A DNA stretch of 55,909 bases. Source: a virus. Its lineage: Duplodnaviria > Caudoviricetes. Positions within the stretch are counted from its first letter, which is position 1, and each line of letters opens with the position of its first letter. The notes under the pieces are model-generated. The model was not told the DNA's origin. It did no database searches and was given only the letters and a program-made list of their open reading frames with translations. Of the stretch, positions 4,954-55,909 are shown in pieces. A program made the position numbers and the translations under genes. Location of the stretch: IMG/VR virus record IMGVR_UViG_3300030106_002604, positions 1-55,909 of that record; one strand, written 5' to 3'.

Positions 4954-5329
4954 AAATTTCTCGCTTAATCTTGAGATACATGCCAAGACTCTGCATCATC
5001 TTGACTGCGCCTGCTTTCATACCGTAAGCTGCTCGCTCGTAGTCTACCTTAAAGGTCTGCTCTGATCCGAGTAGCTCTTCGATCAACTCCTCACCCGCAT
5101 AGCTTGATGCAAGTTCTGTGAGTAGTTCGTCCATTGTGGAATCGGTTACCTCTATAAATATCTTTATGATATCCTCTGGTGTCCATTTCTTCCACTCATC
5201 GTACCCAAACTTCTGTATGTCTATCTTGCACAGATTACCTGCACAATCTACTATGTCGAAGTCATCATCATCTTCACAATCATCCATAAAGATGTCTATG
5301 TATCGTAGTGCTTCCTCGTCTGTAATCAA
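4934..5329 (-). CDS. Hypothetical acidic protein (131 aa)
   Basis: TTG start overlaps the upstream TGA; D/E-rich N-terminus. Confidence 0.7.
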   Translation of the reverse strand: MITDEEALRYIDIFMDDCEDDDDFDIVDCAGNLCKIDIQKFGYDEWKKWTPEDIIKIFIEVTDSTMDELLTELASSYAGEELIEELLGSEQTFKVDYERAAYGMKAGAVKMMQSLGMYLKIKREISCLEYF

Positions 5330-5499
5330 AATCCAAAGTTTTTACATTGATGATAAAAAGGATCTAAAATCTCTGGTCTATAATAAAGGTTTGTATCCTC
5401 ATATTCTCTAACAAACAGCTTGATAAGGTGCATAGCATCTACATGTTTAGGTGTGAGGTGCATGCTTGGTGGTATTAAATGTTCTGTTGTTTTACTCAT
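5326..5499 (-). CDS. Small hypothetical protein (57 aa, MSKTTEHL...KNFGF), not in ORF track
   Basis: Manual translation; start and stop overlap both neighbours. Confidence 0.6.
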   Translation of the reverse strand: MSKTTEHLIPPSMHLTPKHVDAMHLIKLFVREYEDTNLYYRPEILDPFYHQCKNFGF

Positions 5500-5573
5500 G
5501 GTTTATTGTTTTGATAGGTTAAATAAAATGCTGTTACTATATAGAATAGTGCAACTGGTATTAGTATTGTCAT
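5496..5573 (-). CDS. 25-aa membrane peptide MTILIPVALFYIVTAFYLTYQNNKP
   Basis: Manual translation; ATGA overlap with next ORF; hydrophobic. Confidence 0.5.
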   Translation of the reverse strand: MTILIPVALFYIVTAFYLTYQNNKP

Positions 5574-5591
5574 GTGAATTTGTATGTTTGA

Positions 5592-5861
5592 TTATTTTTT
5601 GGTAGAATTTAGTAGATCTCCAACAGCCCATCCAGCTTCTAGGTCGTCTAACCATATCTTTTTTTCTTTTTTAAGAAAATCCCAAGCAAACTCTATAAAG
5701 CTGTCCTCATTTAGGGAACTTCCTTCAAGTTTCCACCACTTGTCAAATAGTTTATTGCAATGTTCGTATGGAGCGTTTTGTATATCAAAGGAAAAATTGC
5801 ATTGATAAGCTTGAGTGAACCAGAAATAAGCTTTGTCAGTTTTGTCAAATCGTATTTTCAT
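5592..5861 (-). CDS. Hypothetical early protein (89 aa)
   Basis: ORF with AT-rich leader. Confidence 0.7.
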   Translation of the reverse strand: MKIRFDKTDKAYFWFTQAYQCNFSFDIQNAPYEHCNKLFDKWWKLEGSSLNEDSFIEFAWDFLKKEKKIWLDDLEAGWAVGDLLNSTKK

Positions 5862-5890
5862 TATGTGAATTTATTCATGTTAATTAAATT

Positions 5891-5988
5891 TAGTGTGAGC
5901 AAGAGGAATCGAACCTCAATGCATAACCAATAAAAGCAGTCAATCGGGTAGGGGCATCACACCCTAGCGGATCTTGCCAGACGCTCAC
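5891..5988 (-). ncRNA. tRNA-like element without canonical D/anticodon arms (98 nt)
   Basis: Acceptor GUGAGCG/UGCUCAC, T-arm GAGG-UUCGAUU-CCUC, discriminator A then CUA; intergenic. Confidence 0.7.
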
Positions 5989-5999
5989 TAGGTATGTCG

Positions 6000-6182
6000 T
6001 TACATACCAATCAATATCTCAAACGCTTTATCCATTGCATAGGTGCGTTGCTGTGTTATCGTGCCGCACACTTGTGGTGTCGGTAACATTATGTGTGTTG
6101 ATTCTAACGTGTAGAAATCTTCATGTCTTTGTATAGCATTAGCTATTTGTCTTTGGTGGTATAGTCTTTCTTGTGTAGTCAT
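6000..6182 (-). CDS. Hypothetical early protein
   Basis: ORF, operon strand. Confidence 0.65.
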   Translation of the reverse strand: MTTQERLYHQRQIANAIQRHEDFYTLESTHIMLPTPQVCGTITQQRTYAMDKAFEILIGM

Positions 6183-6214
6183 GGTGTGTTATTTTACTTT
6201 CATATATCCAACGC

Positions 6215-6451
6215 TTAGTCTTCGACTGACGTTCCTGTTTCGGTGTTATCATAGGCATCATCCTTTGGAACTTCACTATGCTTTGCTTTATGTAAATCAT
6301 TTAGTTGAAGTTGTAGTTGCTCTGCTATAATGCGCCAATGCATTGCTGATTTTAACAGACTCGACTTTGTATTTGCTTTTAGGGCAGACTTAATCTGTTC
6401 TTTTGTCCACCCTTCTAGTGGGTTAAATTCTTGTTCGTTACTCATACTCAT
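6215..6451 (-). CDS. Hypothetical early protein
   Basis: ORF, operon strand. Confidence 0.65.
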   Translation of the reverse strand: MSMSNEQEFNPLEGWTKEQIKSALKANTKSSLLKSAMHWRIIAEQLQLQLNDLHKAKHSEVPKDDAYDNTETGTSVED

Positions 6452-6632
6452 CTGCTTTTATACCCCATAACATATCACGTGGCATCTCATCGAATACCAC
6501 CATGCTACCTTTATGCATTTCGCTAGGGGAGTTTTGTACTATTGTTTGTGCTTCTTCTCTTGTTAGAGAATGGTATAGGATATCCTTATCAAAGTTATCT
6601 CTATACACTCGGTATACTGCGTAATTTTTCAT
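6438..6632 (-). CDS. Hypothetical early protein
   Basis: ORF overlapping neighbours. Confidence 0.65.
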   Translation of the reverse strand: MKNYAVYRVYRDNFDKDILYHSLTREEAQTIVQNSPSEMHKGSMVVFDEMPRDMLWGIKADEYE

Positions 6633-6801
6633 CGTTTGTTATTTCTTTTATTGCGTCAATTAACATATCTCTAGCGTGTGTCGGATCGGATAGCACCGCT
6701 TGTACTAGCCATTCAAATTCATCTGCTAAGTTTTGTCCGTCATATCCTGAACTTAGAATATCAACGTATCTTTCTGCTCGTTTGTGTAGTTCGTAACTCA
6801 T
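6601..6801 (-). CDS. Hypothetical early protein
   Basis: ORF overlapping neighbours. Confidence 0.65.
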   Translation of the reverse strand: MSYELHKRAERYVDILSSGYDGQNLADEFEWLVQAVLSDPTHARDMLIDAIKEITNDEKLRSIPSV

Positions 6802-6904
6802 TTTGTTTTGGTTTAATTGGTTTTGTAATTAGCTCTGCTAGTTCATGCATACTGAATGATGCGAAACCTGTTTGTGTTTTTGGTTTACGTTGTTTGTCCT
6901 TCAT
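6761..6904 (-). CDS. Small hypothetical protein (47 aa, MKDKQRKPKT...)
   Basis: Manual translation; fills a gap in the operon. Confidence 0.45.
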   Translation of the reverse strand: MKDKQRKPKTQTGFASFSMHELAELITKPIKPKQNELRTTQTSRKIR

Positions 6905-7031
6905 ATTTATTAAAATTACTTACTATTATCTCGCACATAGTTCTCAAAGTGCGGTCTGGCATGTCGTCAAAGTGTGTAAGCAAGTCCTCTTGCACTCGCT
7001 CTCTTAGTTCTCGTAGTTGATGTATTGTCAT
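6885..7031 (-). CDS. Small hypothetical protein (48 aa, MTIHQLRELRERVQEDLL...)
   Basis: Manual translation; ATGA overlap with the upstream gene. Confidence 0.6.
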   Translation of the reverse strand: MTIHQLRELRERVQEDLLTHFDDMPDRTLRTMCEIIVSNFNKYEGQTT

Positions 7032-7216
7032 ATCATTGTAATGTTTCCGTCTGTGTCTATGTAACCTGCTTCAATTAGGGCTGATGCAGTTCGCCCGTAA
7101 CTACCTTGTAGTGTCCATGCCATGCCATTGCTGATTAGTTCAGCGAATAGTTCTAGCACTCCCGTGTCATCTAAAAGACCACACTCGAAGTCAATTATTT
7201 TGTCTGTTATATTCAT
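7028..7216 (-). CDS. Conserved small phage protein (62 aa)
   Basis: LFAELISNGMAWTLQGSYGRTASALIEAGY motif; ATGA coupling at 7213-7216. Confidence 0.75.
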   Translation of the reverse strand: MNITDKIIDFECGLLDDTGVLELFAELISNGMAWTLQGSYGRTASALIEAGYIDTDGNITMI

Positions 7217-7452
7217 TGGTTTACTTTTGCTTTTACGGTTAGTATTTCTGTGTCGCATTGCTCAAGCTCTGCTTCGCCTAGCGTATCCCATATGTCGTCG
7301 TATAGGTCATATTCAAGCTCTTTCGTGTAGAACTGTCCCAAGTCATCACCTAGCGTTATTCTTTCAACGGCTGATGGCGTTAGGTTGTCAGGTAAAGCTA
7401 CCTCGATTGTTGTGGTGTATGTGCGCACCACTTCTATTTCAAATGTTTTCAT
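7213..7452 (-). CDS. Hypothetical early protein (79 aa)
   Basis: MKTFEIEV start just after the upstream stop. Confidence 0.7.
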   Translation of the reverse strand: MKTFEIEVVRTYTTTIEVALPDNLTPSAVERITLGDDLGQFYTKELEYDLYDDIWDTLGEAELEQCDTEILTVKAKVNQ

Positions 7453-7454
7453 GA

Positions 7455-7580
7455 TTATTGGTTTTTTGTCCATGTTTCGTATGCAAAGTCTATTGCATCG
7501 TTGATTTCTATTGCCTCTTCACGAGTGATTGTGTACCCTTCTATTCGGTACACTTCGATAATGTTATCTATTACGTCCAT
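7455..7580 (-). CDS. Small hypothetical protein (41 aa, MDVIDNII...)
   Basis: Manual translation; first ORF after the 7620 promoter. Confidence 0.55.
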   Translation of the reverse strand: MDVIDNIIEVYRIEGYTITREEAIEINDAIDFAYETWTKNQ

Positions 7581-7619
7581 GATGTATTAATTGGTTTTCG
7601 ATTGGTTTGAATCGGACTG

Positions 7620-7651
7620 CTAATATACAACAGACTTTTCCAAATTCCAAA
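7620..7651 (-). promoter_or_regulatory. Bacteroidota promoter TTTG-N20-TATATTAG
   Basis: Near-consensus boxes, intergenic. Confidence 0.7.
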
Positions 7652-7675
7652 TTTATTTTTCTAATAACGTAGTTA

Positions 7676-8011
7676 TTACTTGTATCTATTGACCTTCTTA
7701 GCGTTGTCATCATAGATATTTCTTACCACCATACCTAGATGGTCGGCTACATAGCTAATGTGCTTTGATGTAGTGGGTGAGTGCCACTTGGGTGCGACTA
7801 GCGTGCCTACATGCTCCCAACCCCATGCAACGTCAGTATTGTAGCTTTTAACGATGATTTTCCAACCATTTGAGCCACAAAATTCTTTGCGCACAGAAAG
7901 ATTCTGCTTGTACTTTGGTAAATCGACTGATTTCGTATACGGTACACCCCACAAGTGTCCGTCATCACGATACATTTCGTAGTCGTGGTCTGCTTTTTCT
8001 AATAGTCCCAT
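7676..8011 (-). CDS. Conserved early phage protein (111 aa)
   Basis: SYNTDVA...WHSPTTSKHISY motif typical of small early phage proteins. Confidence 0.7.
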   Translation of the reverse strand: MGLLEKADHDYEMYRDDGHLWGVPYTKSVDLPKYKQNLSVRKEFCGSNGWKIIVKSYNTDVAWGWEHVGTLVAPKWHSPTTSKHISYVADHLGMVVRNIYDDNAKKVNRYK

Positions 8012-8023
8012 GTTTATTGGTTT

Positions 8024-8173
8024 TTAAAAGTTAATATCTAATTTCGCTTGTTCGCAAAATGCGTCTGCTACGAGGTTTGCGCCTTCTGTATCCTCACACC
8101 ATGTGAAGTACTCGTATGCTAGTTCTAGCTCTTCAAAGCTAAAGCCTCTATATGGGTTGAATATTCTACTCAT
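8024..8173 (-). CDS. Small hypothetical protein (49 aa)
   Basis: ATG 8173 (MSRIFNPY) follows the upstream stop at 8184. Confidence 0.6.
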   Translation of the reverse strand: MSRIFNPYRGFSFEELELAYEYFTWCEDTEGANLVADAFCEQAKLDINF

Positions 8174-8183
8174 TATGCGTGGT

Positions 8184-8354
8184 TTAGTGTATGATTGTGT
8201 TATCAAAATCGTGAGTCATAAATTCGATATCCTTTAGCCTAAAGCCTTGTTCATCTATCCACTTTTCAACGTCCTCTATTTGAGCGCCTACTAGGTGTTC
8301 GGGCAGGTTATACTGATGCACCTTACCACTTGCGAAGTCTAAGATTGTAATCAT
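8184..8354 (-). CDS. Small hypothetical protein (56 aa, MITILDFASGK...)
   Basis: ATG 8354; the longer start in the ORF track falls inside the ribozyme. Confidence 0.7.
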   Translation of the reverse strand: MITILDFASGKVHQYNLPEHLVGAQIEDVEKWIDEQGFRLKDIEFMTHDFDNTIIH

Positions 8355-8374
8355 AATGTGTAAATTTTTAAATT

Positions 8375-8504
8375 GACATAGACTACCCTCTGCAAACACC
8401 TTCAGATTTTTTTACACGTTAGGCAAACAGGGATACAAGTGATATGTTTGCGTGTGCTTGTCTGCGTTGGGTAGTTTCGACTAATCGAGTCTCATCAGTA
8501 TGCC
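8375..8504 (-). ncRNA. Type I hammerhead ribozyme with extended stem III
   Basis: GGCAUA-CUGAUGA-GAC(UCGAUUA)GUC-GAAA-CUACCC-[~80 nt]-GGGUAG-UC-UAUGUC; all core residues and three stems present; predicted cut between 8381 and 8380. Confidence 0.9.
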
Positions 8505-8929
8505 TATAATAATATTTCTTTCTGGTTTTTACAGTCATAAATTGCGATTTCGCCGCGTTTTTTCGCTATGTCCGTAGCTACGTCTAGGTTATACAGGTGT
8601 TGCACAAGGTCGAAGTATATCTGTCCTTCGTGTACCCATGTGCCTACACCCATGCCTGCCTTGTACAAGTTGCTTGTGTAATCGCCAAGTTTTAGTTGAT
8701 ACTTATCCCATAGCTTTTTGAACGCTTTGAAGTGTGTGCTCACATCAGGGTATGCGCTCCCGTCAACCTCTGCGTACATAGTGGTTGGTTCAGTTAGACC
8801 ACCTACGATGTAACCTTCGGTTGGGTTGGTTTTGCCGTCTGCAAGGCTTGTATACCCACCGTCTATGAGCGTATTGGCGTACGGTATACGCTTCTCGTAT
8901 TCTTTCAGTAAGTTCATAGAATAATTCAT
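8504..8929 (-). CDS. Early protein (141 aa), function unknown
   Basis: GTW...YFD...A...EIAIYD pattern; its stop codon abuts the ribozyme. Confidence 0.8.
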   Translation of the reverse strand: MNYSMNLLKEYEKRIPYANTLIDGGYTSLADGKTNPTEGYIVGGLTEPTTMYAEVDGSAYPDVSTHFKAFKKLWDKYQLKLGDYTSNLYKAGMGVGTWVHEGQIYFDLVQHLYNLDVATDIAKKRGEIAIYDCKNQKEILL

Positions 8930-8952
8930 GATGTATAAAATTTTGGTTTGTA

Positions 8953-9006
8953 AGAGGGTTTATATACTACTCTCATAAATGAGAGGAGTAGTATATTAAA
9001 CCTTCT
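8953..9006. other. Long imperfect inverted repeat (hairpin)
   Basis: AGAGGGTTTA-TATACTACTC...GAGTAGTATA-T-TAAACCTTCT. Confidence 0.8.
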
Positions 9007-9011
9007 AAAGG

Positions 9012-9060
9012 TTAGAGCCAAGAGGGGATTCGAACCCCTTCGCACCCTGTGTGCTTGGCT
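9012..9060 (-). ncRNA. Minimal tRNA-like element (acceptor stem + T-arm, 46-nt core)
   Basis: AGCCAAG-CACACAGGGUGCGA-AGGGG-UUCGAAU-CCCCU-CUUGGCU-CUAA; perfect 7+5 bp; intergenic. Confidence 0.8.
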
Positions 9061-9068
9061 TGTGTGTG

Positions 9069-9464
9069 TTACGCCACCTGTGGCGCACCGTCCATGAGCG
9101 CCTTGCAGTAGCGAACAGCATCTTCAACTGAGTAACCTATCGAACGAAGTTCGCTGAATTCAGGTAGCGTATTCACCTCTGCAACGTCTTCGGGTATGAA
9201 GTTCTCAGCTATCGCTGATTGCTTTTGCGCTTGCGCCTCGAGCTTTTGGTTTTTCGAAACCTTTCGCTTTGCCTTGCGCTTTGGCTTGCGCTTTGGTGTA
9301 GGTGCTACTTCTTCGAGGTTAGACACAAAGTTGGCTAAAGTCTCCATAGACTCTGACAGCTCCCTAAGGAGCTTCACAGCGTGTGCCTTGCGCTCTGCTG
9401 TAGGGTTGAACTTCGCTTGATTAAAGGCTTTCTTTGCCTGCTTGATGAGTGTGCTTGTAAGCAT
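9069..9464 (-). CDS. First early gene, basic hypothetical protein (131 aa)
   Basis: ATG 9464 downstream of the promoter; KRKPKRKAKRK patch. Confidence 0.75.
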   Translation of the reverse strand: MLTSTLIKQAKKAFNQAKFNPTAERKAHAVKLLRELSESMETLANFVSNLEEVAPTPKRKPKRKAKRKVSKNQKLEAQAQKQSAIAENFIPEDVAEVNTLPEFSELRSIGYSVEDAVRYCKALMDGAPQVA

Positions 9465-9512
9465 GATGTAAGATTTTTGGTTTGTACCCTTCGATTTTCG
9501 AAAAGCATACCA

Positions 9513-9544
9513 CAAAGATAGGGAAATAAAACACCGATGTCAAA
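9513..9544 (-). promoter_or_regulatory. Major early promoter TTTG-N20-TATCTTTG
   Basis: Perfect Bacteroidota consensus at the head of the leftward arm. Confidence 0.85.
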
Positions 9545-10298
9545 TTTTTTAGGGATTAATTTCGTGCGCGATTTCTCCCGCAGGAAGGTTACGAAGTAAC
9601 CCGCGTGGAAACAGGCGAAAATTTGGGCTATGGCGCGAGCGCTTGCGAGTGCATGAGGCGCACATGAGGCGAGGGGATTTTGTACTGATAATTGAATTGT
9701 CAATACAAAGCTTAATACTAAGCTACGCTTAGTATTATAATTGTCAATACTAAGTAGGAATTATCAATAGTAAATCCCCTGAAAGGGGAACGTATATTTA
9801 AAGCAAAGGTTTAGGTAGGTGATTGTCCCACGCTTACAATCATTGCAATACGTGCTGCGTTGTGAAGCTATGCTTTAGGTAGATTTACTTAAGTGACTGG
9901 TTTACAGCAGAGTAAAAAGCTAGAATGTATGCGCAAAACTGCAACTTTGTTGCAGGGGGTGGTCAAAAAAAGTCGTTTCGGGTGCGCTACGCTAGCGTCG
10001 TGTAATATATATAATCCCCATCCTCTACATTTCTGGCATTTTTTTCGAGATTGCCTACAGATCTGCCGAAATCTAGCAGGATTCTACACTTATATCAATC
10101 ACGCTAATTTACTTTAGAGGCCATAACGCTGTGATTTGCAACTTTTTAGATGCTGTTTCTTAAATAATCTCTTTAATCTTGACTTTTAAAAAAAAAGTTT
10201 ATACCTTTACGGCATCGACAATGAAGATGATAGGCTGTTCAGATGTATTTTTGTATGTACTGAAGAGTCTATTGTAGTTTAAACGCAAGAATAGTTGT
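9545..10298. other. Divergent non-coding control region (candidate origin / genome end)
   Basis: Longest gap, strand switch, direct repeats AATTRTCAATAS x3, palindromes, G-run at ~9955. Confidence 0.55.
10178..10209 (+). promoter_or_regulatory. Putative rightward promoter CTTG-N20-TACCTTTA
   Basis: Near-consensus with 20-nt spacer. Confidence 0.45.
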
Positions 10299-10592
10299 AT
10301 GCGAGTAAAAAAGAGAGACCCTAAGGTAGGTACTGGGAAGAAACCCAAAGGATCTGGTAGAAGACTCTACACAGACGAGAATCCTAAGGATACTGTCCGC
10401 ATTAAGTTTGCTACACCAGCAGATGCTAGAGCTACTGTTGCTAAAGTTAAGAGAAGTGGGAAACCATTTGCAAGAAAAATACAGATTCTTACTGTAGGAG
10501 AACAGAGAGCAAAGGTGATGAAGAAGAATGAAGTGGTGAATATATTTAAAAAGGGTAAAGACTCTATACGTCGTGAAAGTAAAAAAGAATAA
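10299..10592 (+). CDS. Small basic phage protein (97 aa)
   Basis: GTGKKPKGSGRRLYTDENP; first ORF of the plus arm. Confidence 0.75.
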   Translation: MRVKKRDPKVGTGKKPKGSGRRLYTDENPKDTVRIKFATPADARATVAKVKRSGKPFARKIQILTVGEQRAKVMKKNEVVNIFKKGKDSIRRESKKE

Positions 10593-10692
10593 ATTTGTAG
10601 CTAGCGAAATAAAAAAGCTAATGAAGAAGGGTAAGCCTATGAAACAGGCTGTTGCCATAGCTCTGAGCATGTATGAAAGGAAAAATAAATAA
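10573..10692 (+). CDS. Small basic protein (39 aa, MKVKKNKF...KQAVAIALS...)
   Basis: Manual translation from GTG; QAVAIALS motif also in the 27682 ORF (QAAIAIA). Confidence 0.6.
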   Translation: MKVKKNKFVASEIKKLMKKGKPMKQAVAIALSMYERKNK

Positions 10693-10695
10693 CCT

Positions 10696-10703
10696 TATAT
10701 TTG
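10696..10703 (+). promoter_or_regulatory. -7 box TATATTTG
   Basis: Intergenic, 4 nt before ATG 10708. Confidence 0.55.
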
Positions 10704-10707
10704 CATC

Positions 10708-11370
10708 ATGCCACACACGCCCGATCATAAAGGACTCTTGAAGACAGATAGATTGTCAGCTTCAGAAAGAAGTAGACTTCGTACCTTGAGGAGAAAGAAA
10801 AAAAGTGGATCTTTATCTGGCAGTCAGCTTGCAGAGCTTAAAGGTTTAAGAAAACAAAGAAGAAAAGCTATAGGTAAAGACTTATTAAAAGCAGGTGCAT
10901 TAGTTGGAGGAGCAGCTTTAGCAGCACCAGCCTTAGCTGGAGGAGCAGCAGCAGCAGCGGGAGGTACAGGTGCAGCAGGTGCAGGAGGTGCAGGAGCAGG
11001 TAAATTACTAGGGTTAGGTAAGTTGGGTAAGTTAGGTAAGGCTATTGAGGGTGCAGATAAGCTAGGTAAAATAGGTAAAGCTGTTGAGGGTGCAGATAAG
11101 CTAGGTAAATTAAAAAAGGCTGTTGATGTTGTAGGCGACGTTAAGGAAGTTGCAGAAGGTGTAAAAGAAGTAACAGGAGCATTAGGTGATGTTAAAGATT
11201 TAGTAGCTCCTAAGCCTTTAATGGAAGATATGATTGGAGAACCACAACCTATACAGCCTACACAGCTACCTCAGATAGACAATACTGTACAAGGTGGTGG
11301 GCTTGCTGGTTTAGCAAATACTTTTAAGTATGGCGGTAGAGTTAGAAAGAAAAAGAAAAAGAAAATATAA
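10708..11370 (+). CDS. Gly/Ala-rich putative internal virion protein
   Basis: Basic N-terminus, Gly/Ala tract, 13-aa tandem repeat, KYGGRVRKKK tail. Confidence 0.7.
   Translation: MPHTPDHKGLLKTDRLSASERSRLRTLRRKKKSGSLSGSQLAELKGLRKQRRKAIGKDLLKAGALVGGAALAAPALAGGAAAAAGGTGAAGAGGAGAGKLLGLGKLGKLGKAIEGADKLGKIGKAVEGADKLGKLKKAVDVVGDVKEVAEGVKEVTGALGDVKDLVAPKPLMEDMIGEPQPIQPTQLPQIDNTVQGGGLAGLANTFKYGGRVRKKKKKKI
11035..11112 (+). repeat. 39-bp tandem repeat x2 within CDS
   Basis: GKA(I/V)EGADKLGK(I/L) encoded twice. Confidence 0.85.
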
Positions 11371-11801
11371 TGGCAACATTAAACGTAACCATAACAGAAG
11401 ACTTAACATTAAGTGGTCAAACAATAGGGAGTAGTAATACAGCTTCTTATAGTGTCACATCTGTCGATCATAGAATTATTACATGCACTGTAACAGAACA
11501 AACAGTTCTTTTGTTTAATAGTGCTGATGCAGCTGGAACAATAAAAGATGCAACTCTTAAATACTTAAGACTTACAAACCTAGATACTACAAACTTTATA
11601 GTTATAAGAGTAAAAGGAAACAGCGAAGAATACTTTCAAAAGGTTCCTGCAGGATCTAGCTTTTTGTTAACTGACAGTCAAATGGACGCTAATGCTACAG
11701 GAGGACAGAGTTTATCACTAGCCAATATAGATGAAATATCTATTGATGCAGATTCAGCTTCTGTAGATGTAGAAGTTTATGCAGCGTCAGACCCATCATA
11801 A
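11370..11801 (+). CDS. Putative virion structural protein (beta-rich)
   Basis: MATLNVTITE..., YLRLTNLD; similar to the 28462 and 28860 ORFs. Confidence 0.7.
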   Translation: MATLNVTITEDLTLSGQTIGSSNTASYSVTSVDHRIITCTVTEQTVLLFNSADAAGTIKDATLKYLRLTNLDTTNFIVIRVKGNSEEYFQKVPAGSSFLLTDSQMDANATGGQSLSLANIDEISIDADSASVDVEVYAASDPS

Positions 11802-11810
11802 TTATATAAT

Positions 11811-13490
11811 ATGAAAATAAAAAAATTCGGACACGGGGGAATGATGAGCGACAACGGTAAGCTCGCTATCATGATTAAAAGATTTCTAAGCGGAGGAAAA
11901 CTCTATAGGCATGGTGGTGAGTTTCATAACGCTCAAGGACAACCTACTAACGAAAAAGGAGAGCGTATACCAGATGATCCGCTTGTAGCAGTTGCATCTG
12001 ATGCGGAACGTAGATCTGGAGCAGCTGGTGATGATGGTTCTGCACAAACAGGTAGGATAAGAGGGGGAACAACACGACCTGAGCAACAAACAGGTAGCAC
12101 TATAGCTACTCCAGAGCAAGCTGAATTAATGACTCAAGGAACAGGTGAAGGAACTGTGGCATCTTTTAATACAGAGCCTATATCTCCAGACATGTCTCAA
12201 GATCAGTTTGAACTAGCTATGCAGTCTCCGTTTGTTGCTGAACAGTTTAAAGGAATGGATATCCAAACTCCACAGCAGCTTGCAGAAGCTTACGAAGGTT
12301 TTAAATCTCAGGCAACTTCAGCCATCAGAGAAAACGAGGAAGGAGTTGCTAATGCTGCAAGAGAGCTTGCTAAGACTAATGAGAACTTTAGAATAAAATT
12401 AGAAACCTTAGGTGACAACCCAACAGATAAAGAAATAGCTGATTTAATGATACAGCAAAATACTGATGGCTTGCTTGGTGATCTACACGGAGCAGTTGTT
12501 GATCAGTTCTTACCTGCAACGCAACTTAACGCATTTTATTTCCCCCGCTATCAAGAAGTAGGTAAACGCTTTGTAACCGAGACTACTATTAATGGTCAAA
12601 AAGTAGCTGCAGATAAACCTATTTTTACTAGCATACAGGATAAAGGAATAAAGACTAAAGCTGGGATGGAAAAACTTTTCCAAGATGCAACCGACGCTGG
12701 AGTAGACTTAACAAAAAACATAGCTGCAACAGAGGATTTTTTAAGAACTTGGTTTACAGATTCAGCCAATGAAGAATTTATTTCAACTGCACAAGGCGTT
12801 GAAAGAATGATTACGGGAGGAACTGGTATAAACGATATAAAACGTCCAGAGTTTATTAAGACGATGTTTATGGATGCCATGAAGAAAGAGAATTCAACAG
12901 TTCCAACATTTGACCAAATGGGTGAATACCGTCAACTCATAAAGCTCAGGGGTCAGGAGGCAGCCGATGCATTTGCTGAAAGGGAAGGTTTTGATCCAAC
13001 TCGTCAATTGGGTAAAAGTGAAAATTTCAAAGTTATTAAGAACGGAGATAAAACTAAACAAGATACTGAGGCAGCTTTGCAATCTAGATCGGATCAAGCA
13101 GAAGAAAAAGCAAGGGAGAGATACAGAAGTATGAATCCTAATTTCGATGCTCGAATGACCGAAATGGAACAGATAGAGGCTTATAACGAAAAGGAAGGCA
13201 CAAACTTTAGGAGCTATTCTGCCATGATGGAGGATATGCAAAGAAAAACTAAAGATGCTTTTCAAGAGAGAAAGAGAGAGGGGATGGAGAATATTAAGGA
13301 AGAGAGGAGACAAGAATTCTTAGACGAGTATTTTAAAAGTAGAGGAATAAACCGTACAGAGGCTACTGAATTTCAATTGGCGTTAGCAGATAGGGCTTTT
13401 GAAAGATCATTTGGTCAGGGCGGAATGAGAGTTCTTAAACGTGCAGGTAAATCTCCTATAGGTGCGTTATCTGCATTGTTTAAAAAATAG
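11811..13490 (+). CDS. Putative internal virion protein (559 aa, helical)
   Basis: Long ORF; xxGG motifs at both termini. Confidence 0.7.
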   Translation: MKIKKFGHGGMMSDNGKLAIMIKRFLSGGKLYRHGGEFHNAQGQPTNEKGERIPDDPLVAVASDAERRSGAAGDDGSAQTGRIRGGTTRPEQQTGSTIATPEQAELMTQGTGEGTVASFNTEPISPDMSQDQFELAMQSPFVAEQFKGMDIQTPQQLAEAYEGFKSQATSAIRENEEGVANAARELAKTNENFRIKLETLGDNPTDKEIADLMIQQNTDGLLGDLHGAVVDQFLPATQLNAFYFPRYQEVGKRFVTETTINGQKVAADKPIFTSIQDKGIKTKAGMEKLFQDATDAGVDLTKNIAATEDFLRTWFTDSANEEFISTAQGVERMITGGTGINDIKRPEFIKTMFMDAMKKENSTVPTFDQMGEYRQLIKLRGQEAADAFAEREGFDPTRQLGKSENFKVIKNGDKTKQDTEAALQSRSDQAEEKARERYRSMNPNFDARMTEMEQIEAYNEKEGTNFRSYSAMMEDMQRKTKDAFQERKREGMENIKEERRQEFLDEYFKSRGINRTEATEFQLALADRAFERSFGQGGMRVLKRAGKSPIGALSALFKK

Positions 13491-55455: not shown

Positions 55456-55909
55456 CTAAGATAGTTCATAAATCATAATCTCGCCAGTATTTGGGTGATT
55501 ATATTTTACGGAGGTCTTAGCTCCTCCTGACGCTGTTATATCCTCCTCGTTCCAAGGTATATACACCATGCTTGACAGGTCGTCTAAGTCGTGTAAAGTA
55601 ACGCTAGTTATAACATCTTTCTTACCCCACTTAGCTCTAGTGTATAGTTTTTTGTATGCTTTTTTGTAGCTATCTACATAATCTTTAGATATGTTTGATC
55701 TACACCAATCCAAGCATTCTTCTCTATCAAATCTAAAAAAACCACATAGATCTTCTATCTCCATAGCAATCCAAGTAGCATCACCCTGCATCCATCCTTT
55801 CTCTCCAGCTGTATTTTTAAACTCAAGGCATATCGAATCAGCACGCTTCTTTCCTTTAACGTCAACGCCTAGTGTTTCATCTGGACCATGCCAAAAGTCT
55901 ACGTGCCTA
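55456..55909 (-). CDS. 3' part of the junction-spanning nuclease gene
   Basis: Frame is open to the window end and matches 1-141. Confidence 0.7.
   Translation of the reverse strand, partial: RHVDFWHGPDETLGVDVKGKKRADSICLEFKNTAGEKGWMQGDATWIAMEIEDLCGFFRFDREECLDWCRSNISKDYVDSYKKAYKKLYTRAKWGKKDVITSVTLHDLDDLSSMVYIPWNEEDITASGGAKTSVKYNHPNTGEIMIYELS
55769..55909. repeat. Terminal direct repeat, copy 2
   Basis: 140/141 identical to 1-141. Confidence 0.95.

Follow-up and report, generated by a model that had tools for sequence, protein, structure and literature searches.

What is a tRNA-like fold without a decoding half doing between two genes of a phage genome? The virus contig IMGVR_UViG_3300030106_002604 (Duplodnaviria; Caudoviricetes), a whole phage contig of 55,909 bp (37.7% G+C) that is called the window below, contains such a fold in a block of early genes on the minus strand, and an earlier note, made from the sequence alone, had described it as a minimal tRNA mimic. 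Its structure, strand, conservation, compensatory changes, purifying selection, and modular presence and absence, all read from sequence, mark the element as an RNA structure kept by selection that imitates the "top half" of a tRNA. We consider it about an even bet (probability roughly 0.5) that this structure acts in cis as a processing signal read by host RNase P and RNase Z, which would split an early transcript.

The tRNA-like sense of the element lies on the minus strand, which had not been stated before, from 9060 to 9016, giving 45 nt, or 46 nt with a discriminator-like C. On this strand, the perfect 7-bp acceptor stem, 5-bp T-stem, and TTCGAAT loop of the original description are all present, and a repeat finder returned the acceptor arms (9016–9022 and 9054–9060) as 7-nt segments with 100% complementarity. 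The T-arm bears the tRNA motif GGTTCGAATCC, and the 7-bp acceptor stem stands on the 5-bp T-stem, with T54, T55, C56, R57, and A58 in the loop and a G53–C61 pair closing it. The D and anticodon arms are replaced by 14 nt, as had been proposed, and this linker is too short for either arm; what is formed is an acceptor/T-arm minihelix and not a cloverleaf, and the element is unable to decode because the anticodon arm is absent. The triplet CUA that had been noticed behind the element does follow it, and also follows a second, 94-nt element in the window, but as a tRNA feature it had to be abandoned: CTA also stands ahead of a long hairpin in relatives that lack the tRNA-like element, and therefore belongs to this neighboring hairpin module and is not a degenerate CCA.

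As the earlier note had foreseen, tRNA finders missed the element. ARAGORN reported 0 genes with default settings and also with -i or -ps, and nothing in the tmRNA mode (-m), whereas all calls at relaxed settings were implausible, either having introns of 30 to 2172 nt or being of mitochondrial type. At the gathering score, Rfam gave 0 matches to the element, tmRNA models included, and the tRNA model had no match in the window-wide scan (E up to 1) or in the local scan (E up to 10). The sole tRNA-like match of the local scan was mascRNA-menRNA (RF01684), with 20.0 bits against a cut-off of 42.5 (E 0.11). Apart from the T-arm of the element, no hairpin in the window combined a TTCRA loop with a 5-bp stem, and the full pattern (a TTCRA T-arm, then directly a 7-nt strand with a perfect partner up to 110 nt upstream) occurred in 11 of 300 simulated genomes of equal dinucleotide content. 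The single-genome evidence against chance is thus suggestive only; the perfect stems, from which selection rather than decay had been argued, do not carry that argument alone, and it is the comparative data that are decisive and bear it out. Folded alone, the element was unremarkable (−18.5 kcal/mol, z −1.82, 10 of 200 shuffles as good). The 149-nt intergenic stretch reached −41.1 kcal/mol (z −4.87, 0 of 200 shuffles as good), and its fold consisted of exactly two modules, the element and the long hairpin, followed by an unpaired A-rich leader.

Homologues were collected with the flanking proteins as anchors, which lie outside the element, and 8 IMG/VR loci and 70 metagenome loci were fetched. 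The element was found at the same site after the same gene in five IMG/VR contigs. Of the metagenome loci, 38 matched the upstream gene fully or almost fully, and 19 of these had the element at this site, 18 of them complete (the contig of L063 ends within its copy); 10 had the gene and the downstream region without the element, six were distant relatives with other sequence, and three stopped short of the site. In the other 32 metagenome loci, with partial gene matches, the covariance model detected no element. Together with the window, this gave 24 complete copies with 11 distinct sequences, and one further complete copy (L142), identical to the L069 variant, stands outside this count. Because some copies are probably one phage assembled twice, distinct sequences were counted. 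At the element-free loci, the site was occupied by a different small open reading frame (ORF; L046–L049) or by a short stem–loop and then the long hairpin (L051, L055, L058, L059, L070, and L071). The stem–loops of L055, L058, L059, and L070 have 6 bp and overlap the stop codon of the upstream gene or lie just past it; they differ in sequence and, by eye, still pair (AACAGC/GCTGTT, AACTTC/GAAGTT, and ACCTTC/GAAGGT).

The variation among the 11 distinct sequences followed the predicted pairs. All 77 acceptor cells were Watson–Crick paired, with pair 5 being A–T in four sequences and T–A in seven and pair 2 being G–C in 10 and A–T in one, and no half-changed acceptor pair occurred among them. 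The T-stem core was GGGG/CCCC in four, GGAGG/CCTCC in six, and AAGGG/CCCTT in one, which reads as a compensated one-pair indel together with compensated substitutions. At the acceptor junction, the pair was A–T in five, T·T in five, and T·G in one, and the stacked helix had 12 bp in the type found in the window and elsewhere 13 bp, or 12 bp plus a T·T mismatch. The T-loop was TTCGAAT in six, TTCGACT in four, and TTCGATT in one, so that it varied only at position 59, the free position in tRNAs. In the model-fitted alignment, 95.1% of the cells were paired and six of 13 pairs showed both-sided changes; none of 500 shuffles matched the observed percentage of paired cells, the number of both-sided pairs or cells, or the covariation score, 38 of 500 reached the observed count of further pair types, and sliding the partners by 1–3 columns left 43–66% of the cells paired. 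The tiny CAC/GUG hairpin that had been seen in the linker fared less well. In the register CAC(3–5)/GUG(9–11), it rests on a single both-sided change, with 79 of 500 shuffles scoring as high, and in the register CAC(1–3)/GUG there were zero such changes; a mini-hairpin here is possible.

The element was conserved in its unpaired parts as well. Nucleotide diversity was 0.091 in each acceptor strand, 0.077 in the T-loop, and 0.065 in the linker, compared with 0.080, 0.052, and 0.379 at codon positions 1, 2, and 3 of the adjacent 120 nt of coding sequence (18 haplotypes); over 14 haplotypes, the 0.065 of the linker contrasted with 0.363 at codon position 3 of the neighboring gene. The element is constrained as strongly as non-synonymous sites and is under purifying selection. 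On a tree of the upstream gene with 32 rows (L047 and L048, with an L046-like downstream context, the truncated L063, the distant relatives, and L142 were left out), at least seven changes were required for the state of pair 5, five for the T-stem type, and six for presence and absence. This homoplasy probably reflects recombination among co-circulating phages, and no mismatched recombinant was found among the sequences compared. Some G–U pairs form only on the minus-strand transcript, namely at the junction of the L064 copy, in pair 7 of the 94-nt element, and in three pairs of the long hairpin; these sense-strand pairs fit an RNA made from the minus strand better than a DNA structure.

The same bracket of acceptor stem and T-arm also encloses longer cores. 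L064 and L065 have a 28-nt core with an extra TTCG-capped hairpin (61 nt in total, z −3.04), and L060 and L068 have a 68-nt core (101 nt in total), so that cores of 14, 15, 28, and 68 nt occur within a constant bracket; as with the 45-nt form, Rfam gave no tRNA or tmRNA match on these longer relatives. The second bracketed element of the window, of 94 nt, belongs to the same operon and lies between the stop codon of the gene at 6182..6000 and the short leader of the gene at 5861..5592, all on the minus strand. It has a 7-bp stem, GTGAGCG/TGCTCAC, with one G–U pair, a 66-nt core, and a T-arm, GAGG-TTCGATT-CCTC, flanked by a T·T mismatch; ARAGORN made no tRNA call on it and Rfam had no tRNA or tmRNA match. 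It was identical in two relatives with flanks that were 89–92% alike, and six full copies had five variable positions; the gene downstream of it had no relatives in IMG/VR. No true tRNA was found in the six phage contigs scanned.

Table 1. Positions of the tRNA-like element, its parts, and its neighbors in the window
Feature	Positions	Strand	Remarks
Upstream early gene	9464..9069	−	131 aa, function unknown; TAA stop 8 nt ahead of the element
CA-rich spacer, CACACACA	9068..9061	−	8 nt from stop codon to element; presumed 5' leader
Acceptor-like stem, 5' strand	9060..9054	−	AGCCAAG; from sequence and repeat finder
Linker	9053..9040	−	14 nt, in place of D and anticodon arms; conserved GG; possible mini-hairpin of 3–4 bp
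T-arm	9039..9023	−	5-bp stem AGGGG (9039..9035)/CCCCT (9027..9023); loop TTCGAAT (9034..9028)
Acceptor-like stem, 3' strand	9022..9016	−	CTTGGCT
Discriminator-like C	9015	−	First base of CTA (9015..9013)
Long conserved hairpin	9006..8953	−	About 24 bp; separate module directly 3' of the element
Downstream gene	8929..8504	−	141 aa, phrog_17808 (unknown function); ATG after an unpaired A-rich leader without a Shine–Dalgarno sequence
Second bracketed element	5988..5895	−	94 nt (the "98-nt element" of the earlier note); T-arm found by covariance model

What the element retains of a tRNA, namely the stack of acceptor stem and T-arm, the T-loop, and a GG-containing single strand at the junction, is what RNase P, RNase Z, and the CCA-adding enzyme read; the part used in decoding is missing. 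In the processing that we propose, the element would be co-transcribed with the early minus-strand operon, 8 nt past the stop codon of its first gene, and would present the coaxial acceptor/T-arm helix and the T-loop, while the GG-containing linker may take the place of the D-loop at the elbow. The tRNA end-processing enzymes of the host would then take the element for a pre-tRNA, with a cut by RNase P ahead of 9060, at the 5' end, and one by RNase Z or an equivalent past the discriminator, at about 9015. The polycistronic early transcript would thereby be split into an upstream mRNA that ends just past its own stop codon and a downstream mRNA that begins with the long 5' hairpin and an unstructured leader, and a tRNA-like RNA of about 45 nt, which could receive CCA, would be freed. 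That both elements of the window stand directly upstream of a gene leader or a 5' hairpin counts in favor of processing.

Several known systems make such a signal plausible, and none of them is the same thing. Acceptor–T-arm minihelices serve as model substrates for RNase P, for the CCA-adding enzyme, and for some synthetases, and the 12-bp coaxial acceptor/T helix with its T-loop is the minimal unit that these enzymes accept; whereas minihelices are laboratory constructs, the phage version is natural and conserved, has an extra 14-nt linker at the junction, and encodes no CCA. RNase P and RNase Z process the mascRNA structure, which gives the upstream RNA its 3' end and frees a small CCA-tailed RNA. 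Like the phage element, mascRNA/MEN-beta (RF01684) is a tRNA-like fold within a longer transcript, and no other tRNA-like Rfam model aligned with the element over its full length; it differs in being vertebrate, in forming a cloverleaf with a reduced anticodon stem, and in sharing no common sequence ancestry, its score being far below the cut-off as given above. The tRNA-like domain of tmRNA combines an acceptor stem with a T-arm, has a single strand resembling a D-loop, and lacks an anticodon arm, and its variable part exits at the same junction as the variable core of the phage elements. Charging of tmRNA with alanine needs a G–U pair at 3:70. In the element, pair 3:70 was C–G in 11 of 11 distinct sequences, there was no tag reading frame and there were no pseudoknots, and the tmRNA searches with ARAGORN and Rfam were empty, so that identity with a tmRNA domain was rejected. 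The comparison includes the reduced tmRNAs of jakobid mitochondria, which are mentioned in the abstract of PMC3590771.

Bacterial Y RNAs come close in another respect. As described in part of PMC4201824, a 7-bp stem is cited as a major determinant for RNase P, a 7-bp acceptor stem sufficed to turn a bacterial Y RNA into an RNase P substrate, cut by RNase P RNA, and CCA was added in vivo; the YrlA Y RNAs treated there resemble the phage element as non-decoding tRNA mimics with a T-arm and D-like features, and occur in phages too. Y RNAs differ in lying beside Ro60, in carrying a Ro-binding helix, and in having another topology. A search of the phage genome for Ro60/TROVE (PF05731) gave 0 matches, with the control positive in two reference genomes, no Rfam match pointed to a Y RNA, and this identity was likewise rejected. 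The closest functional parallel is provided by the t-elements of plant mitochondria. According to passages of PMC1920247, these were discovered by way of a conserved T-arm motif, GGTTCRANYCC, and have ends that coincide with mRNA 5'/3' ends ascribed to RNase P and RNase Z, and the freed t-element, 74 nt in the case of cox1, receives non-encoded C/A. As in the phage, a non-canonical tRNA-like fold with an acceptor stem and T-arm motif stands at mRNA borders in the accounts given there, and the position of the phage elements, past a stop codon and ahead of a leader, matches this logic; in contrast, t-elements are organellar and much larger (74 nt for that of cox1 vs 45 nt), and cleavage in the phage is proposed. 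With GGTTCGAATCC, which falls in the GGTTCRANYCC class, in a non-canonical tRNA-like fold between a stop codon and the next leader, the phage element would belong with the t-elements, which are a functional class and not a sequence family.

Several observations weigh against the reading as a processing signal. Transcription of the element, its cleavage by RNase P and RNase Z, the addition of CCA, and any effect on expression are steps that we infer. No CCA is encoded, the first pair is A–U instead of G–C, and the length of the stack is looser than in a real tRNA. The covariation alignment was fitted to the model, with the 5' strand of the long variants mis-placed, and part of the compensation may have arisen by recombination between two allelic forms and not by repeated mutation. 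The element is also dispensable, as the 10 of 38 loci with the gene and region alone demonstrate, and its presence and absence on the gene tree needs at least six gains or losses.

We also searched for a host origin of the tRNA-like sequence. The 23 nt of the T-arm and 3' strand had 0 exact matches in one genome each of 185,579 species. A degenerate pattern had 19 matches, about the chance expectation, of which seven lay in genes for tRNA-Leu or tRNA-Cys from unrelated phyla (Planctomycetota and Verrucomicrobiota, besides a methanogen and a Methylophilus), and a looser pattern was found in six of 401 Bacteroidia genomes, compared with four for the reversed control, one of these matches being a tRNA-Arg with a different acceptor stem. 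Tyrosine and serine integrases or recombinases (PF00589, PF00239, and PF07508) were absent from the phage genome. With no host tRNA match above chance and no integrase family, an attP or host-tRNA 3'-half site was rejected. The element is not coding sequence either, because its copies differ in length by 1, 2, 3, 16, and 56 nt, nor an intrinsic terminator, since a scan of 5000–12000 lists none at 8950–9065 and the element is followed by CTAACC, with no U run. Two local alternatives also failed by eye: variants of the CA-rich spacer show no co-variation with the linker GGGTG with which it might have paired, and a sigma-70-type promoter over the 3' strand of the element (TTGGCT-17-TAATAT) breaks down in relatives with different spacing.

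Among the other explanations, the RNA might act in trans, with the bracket serving as a "tRNA scaffold" that stabilizes and releases a cargo of 14–68 nt and with processing being only its means of production; the minimal form would then be a decoy or sponge for a host factor that binds the acceptor end or elbow of tRNAs, for which the CCA-adding enzyme, T-loop modification enzymes, and a defense toxin targeting tRNA ends are candidates. Such a role would explain why the linker is conserved like the stems (0.065), beyond the obvious need of a cleavage signal, why the 66-nt core of the second element is almost invariant, and why the core varies in size within a constant bracket, and Y RNAs of bacteria and phages, as presented in part of PMC4201824, show that non-decoding tRNA-like modules exist. 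We nevertheless regard it as unlikely: there is no known partner; Ro60/TROVE and nucleotidyltransferase genes were not found in the phage; close relatives lack the element; it has no upstream promoter of its own, because coding sequence reaches to 8 nt before it; and no comparable phage decoy was found in the literature searched, at the level of titles and abstracts. A wider form of the idea, which we offer as a rather doubtful speculation, is that of a phage family of tRNA-scaffolded small RNAs, in which a variable cargo (14 nt in the window, 28 and 68 nt in relatives, and 66 nt in the second element) would be excised and stabilized by RNase P, RNase Z, and the CCA-adding enzyme, drawn in by the constant bracket. 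The 45-nt form would be the bare scaffold, CCA-tailed and acting in trans, for example as a decoy for host factors or defense toxins that bind the acceptor end or elbow of tRNAs. Alternatively, the fold could be a structural cap that shields the upstream mRNA from 3' exonucleases after cleavage elsewhere, for example at the long hairpin, with RNase P uninvolved. Structure at the 3' end of the gene indeed seems constant, the 6-bp stem–loops of L055, L058, L059, and L070 standing where the element is missing. However, a plain hairpin would suffice for a cap, and the canonical T-loop, the variation at position 59 only, the 7 + 5 geometry, and the place of the second element ahead of a start codon would all be unexplained, which makes this explanation quite improbable in our estimate.

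The two readings that dispense with a functional RNA fit the data worst. If the feature acted at the DNA level, as the inverted terminal repeats of a miniature mobile element or as a protein-binding or recombination site, then the presence/absence and length polymorphism among close relatives, with at least six presence changes on the tree, would be expected, as would mirrored changes in the 7-nt arms. However, there is a single copy per genome, always at the same locus and with no visible target-site duplication; the arms are spaced by 31 to 87 nt, the G–T pairs work on one strand only, the internal canonical T-arm is unexplained, and no transposase or recombinase was found among the families searched, so that we give this explanation very little weight. 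Hardly any credence is left for a functionless remnant, that is, a decaying phage tRNA gene or an attP-type host tRNA 3' half, which the earlier note had itself named as the outcome that would undo its proposal. Phages often carry tRNA genes, and the T-arm and 3' strand resemble the part of a tRNA carried by attP sites. This reading is largely refuted: purifying selection reaches the strength seen at non-synonymous sites, none of the 77 acceptor cells is mismatched, the 5' strand is present and co-varies, homologues show compensatory changes, the genomes of all those species gave 0 exact matches, and no integrase or recombinase was found. The probability that remains belongs to chance or to an explanation not yet thought of.

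Devices that use tRNA-like structures for processing or mimicry occur in plant mitochondria, in bacterial Y RNAs and the long non-coding RNAs of vertebrates, and in herpesviruses and RNA viruses of plants. In the literature searched (titles and abstracts), we found no conserved acceptor/T-arm element without an anticodon from an operon of a DNA phage, and no Rfam family covers the element. If host tRNA-maturation enzymes do cut here, the "tRNA punctuation" of polycistronic mRNAs would extend to bacterial phages whose mRNAs lack Shine–Dalgarno sequences, and the element would be a compact natural processing cassette of 45 nt. Its natural variants, with compensated stems, a one-pair indel in the T-stem, cores of 14–68 nt, and element-free relatives, amount to a ready-made mutational analysis of the minimal tRNA shape. 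Such elements may be commoner in viromes than annotation implies, because tRNA finders miss them.

The long hairpin next to the element is unique in the genome. Relatives with and without the tRNA-like element retain it, except that it is missing behind the element of L066, and it is an independent module. RNAalifold on its eight distinct versions showed both-sided changes in seven of 20 predicted pairs, and it lacks a U-tract. Its role could be that of an RNase III-type site or of a stabilizer at the 5' end of the downstream mRNA. A weak Rfam likeness to the stem–loops of plastid psbA 3' untranslated regions was below the cut-offs and was dismissed as chance similarity between AU-rich hairpins.

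The window codes for a large terminase, a portal, a primase/helicase, and a ribonucleotide reductase, and its ends (nt 1–141 and 55769–55909) are 99.3% identical. Such a terminal overlap of 141 nt is as expected of an essentially complete genome that is terminally redundant or was assembled as a circle. In GenBank, the primase had its nearest relatives in phages of Maribacter, Cellulophaga, and Flavobacterium, and because all are below 60% identity (33.8% at the top), a Flavobacteriia-type host is a lead and no finding. The 20 listed public sequencing runs that contain the region are marine DNA metagenomes; no RNA run containing it was found among the public runs searched. A contig of one DNA run (X3) covers 8800–9298 with 18 differences, of which the 16 listed all lie outside 8892–9137, and a contig of another (X8) has A>T at 9020 plus two more differences at unlisted positions; a further DNA run (X9) gave nothing over the region. 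Pfam, PHROG, and the protein atlas gave no function for the proteins neighboring the element; for the 131-aa protein, there was no Pfam or PHROG family and no usable protein-atlas match. The gene at 7028–7258 (minus strand), assigned to DUF7417 (E 3.8e−24), encodes the only small early protein of the neighborhood with a Pfam family.

Some sequences elsewhere recall parts of the element. In the distant relative L076, positions 1745–1871 form a 127-nt structure (z −2.94) in which the T-arm, GGTGG-TTCGACT-CCACC, is perfect and the 7-bp closing stem includes two G–U pairs; a promoter-like TTGCAA-17-TAATTT stands before the structure and a leader and ATG after it; no second copy was found in IMG/VR, and as a further bracketed element it is a lead only. 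Pattern matches in L012, L014, and L141 fall inside coding sequence and were rejected as due to chance. A 25-nt stretch from the 5' half of the element (L061 variant) recurs exactly in L013 (minus strand, about 8716–8740) and also in L016, L017, and L018, four near-identical marine phage contigs of the HMO-2011/CRP type, inside a conserved ORF (..KPSTQGAK..). Roseobacter phage CRP-603 has a homologue in which different codons specify this peptide, which indicates that the coding sequence is old in the HMO-2011/CRP lineage; the match is either a coincidence or a sign of capture of a piece in the opposite direction.

At the head of the early operon, about 800 nt (9465–10268) contain no convincing gene. 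They include three TTGACA-containing repeats, two of them GTATTGACAATT, several hairpins (e.g., 9775–9789 and 9713–9737), and a terminator-like stem followed by a T-run near 9940–9965; this stretch is probably the early promoter and regulatory region and may encode small RNAs. Two early genes share a near-identical leader on the minus strand (8930–8955 and 9465–9490), consisting of ACAAACCAAAA, a few bases, and ACATCATG. This shared leader has no Shine–Dalgarno sequence, is also retained in relatives, and fits a Bacteroidota-type host.

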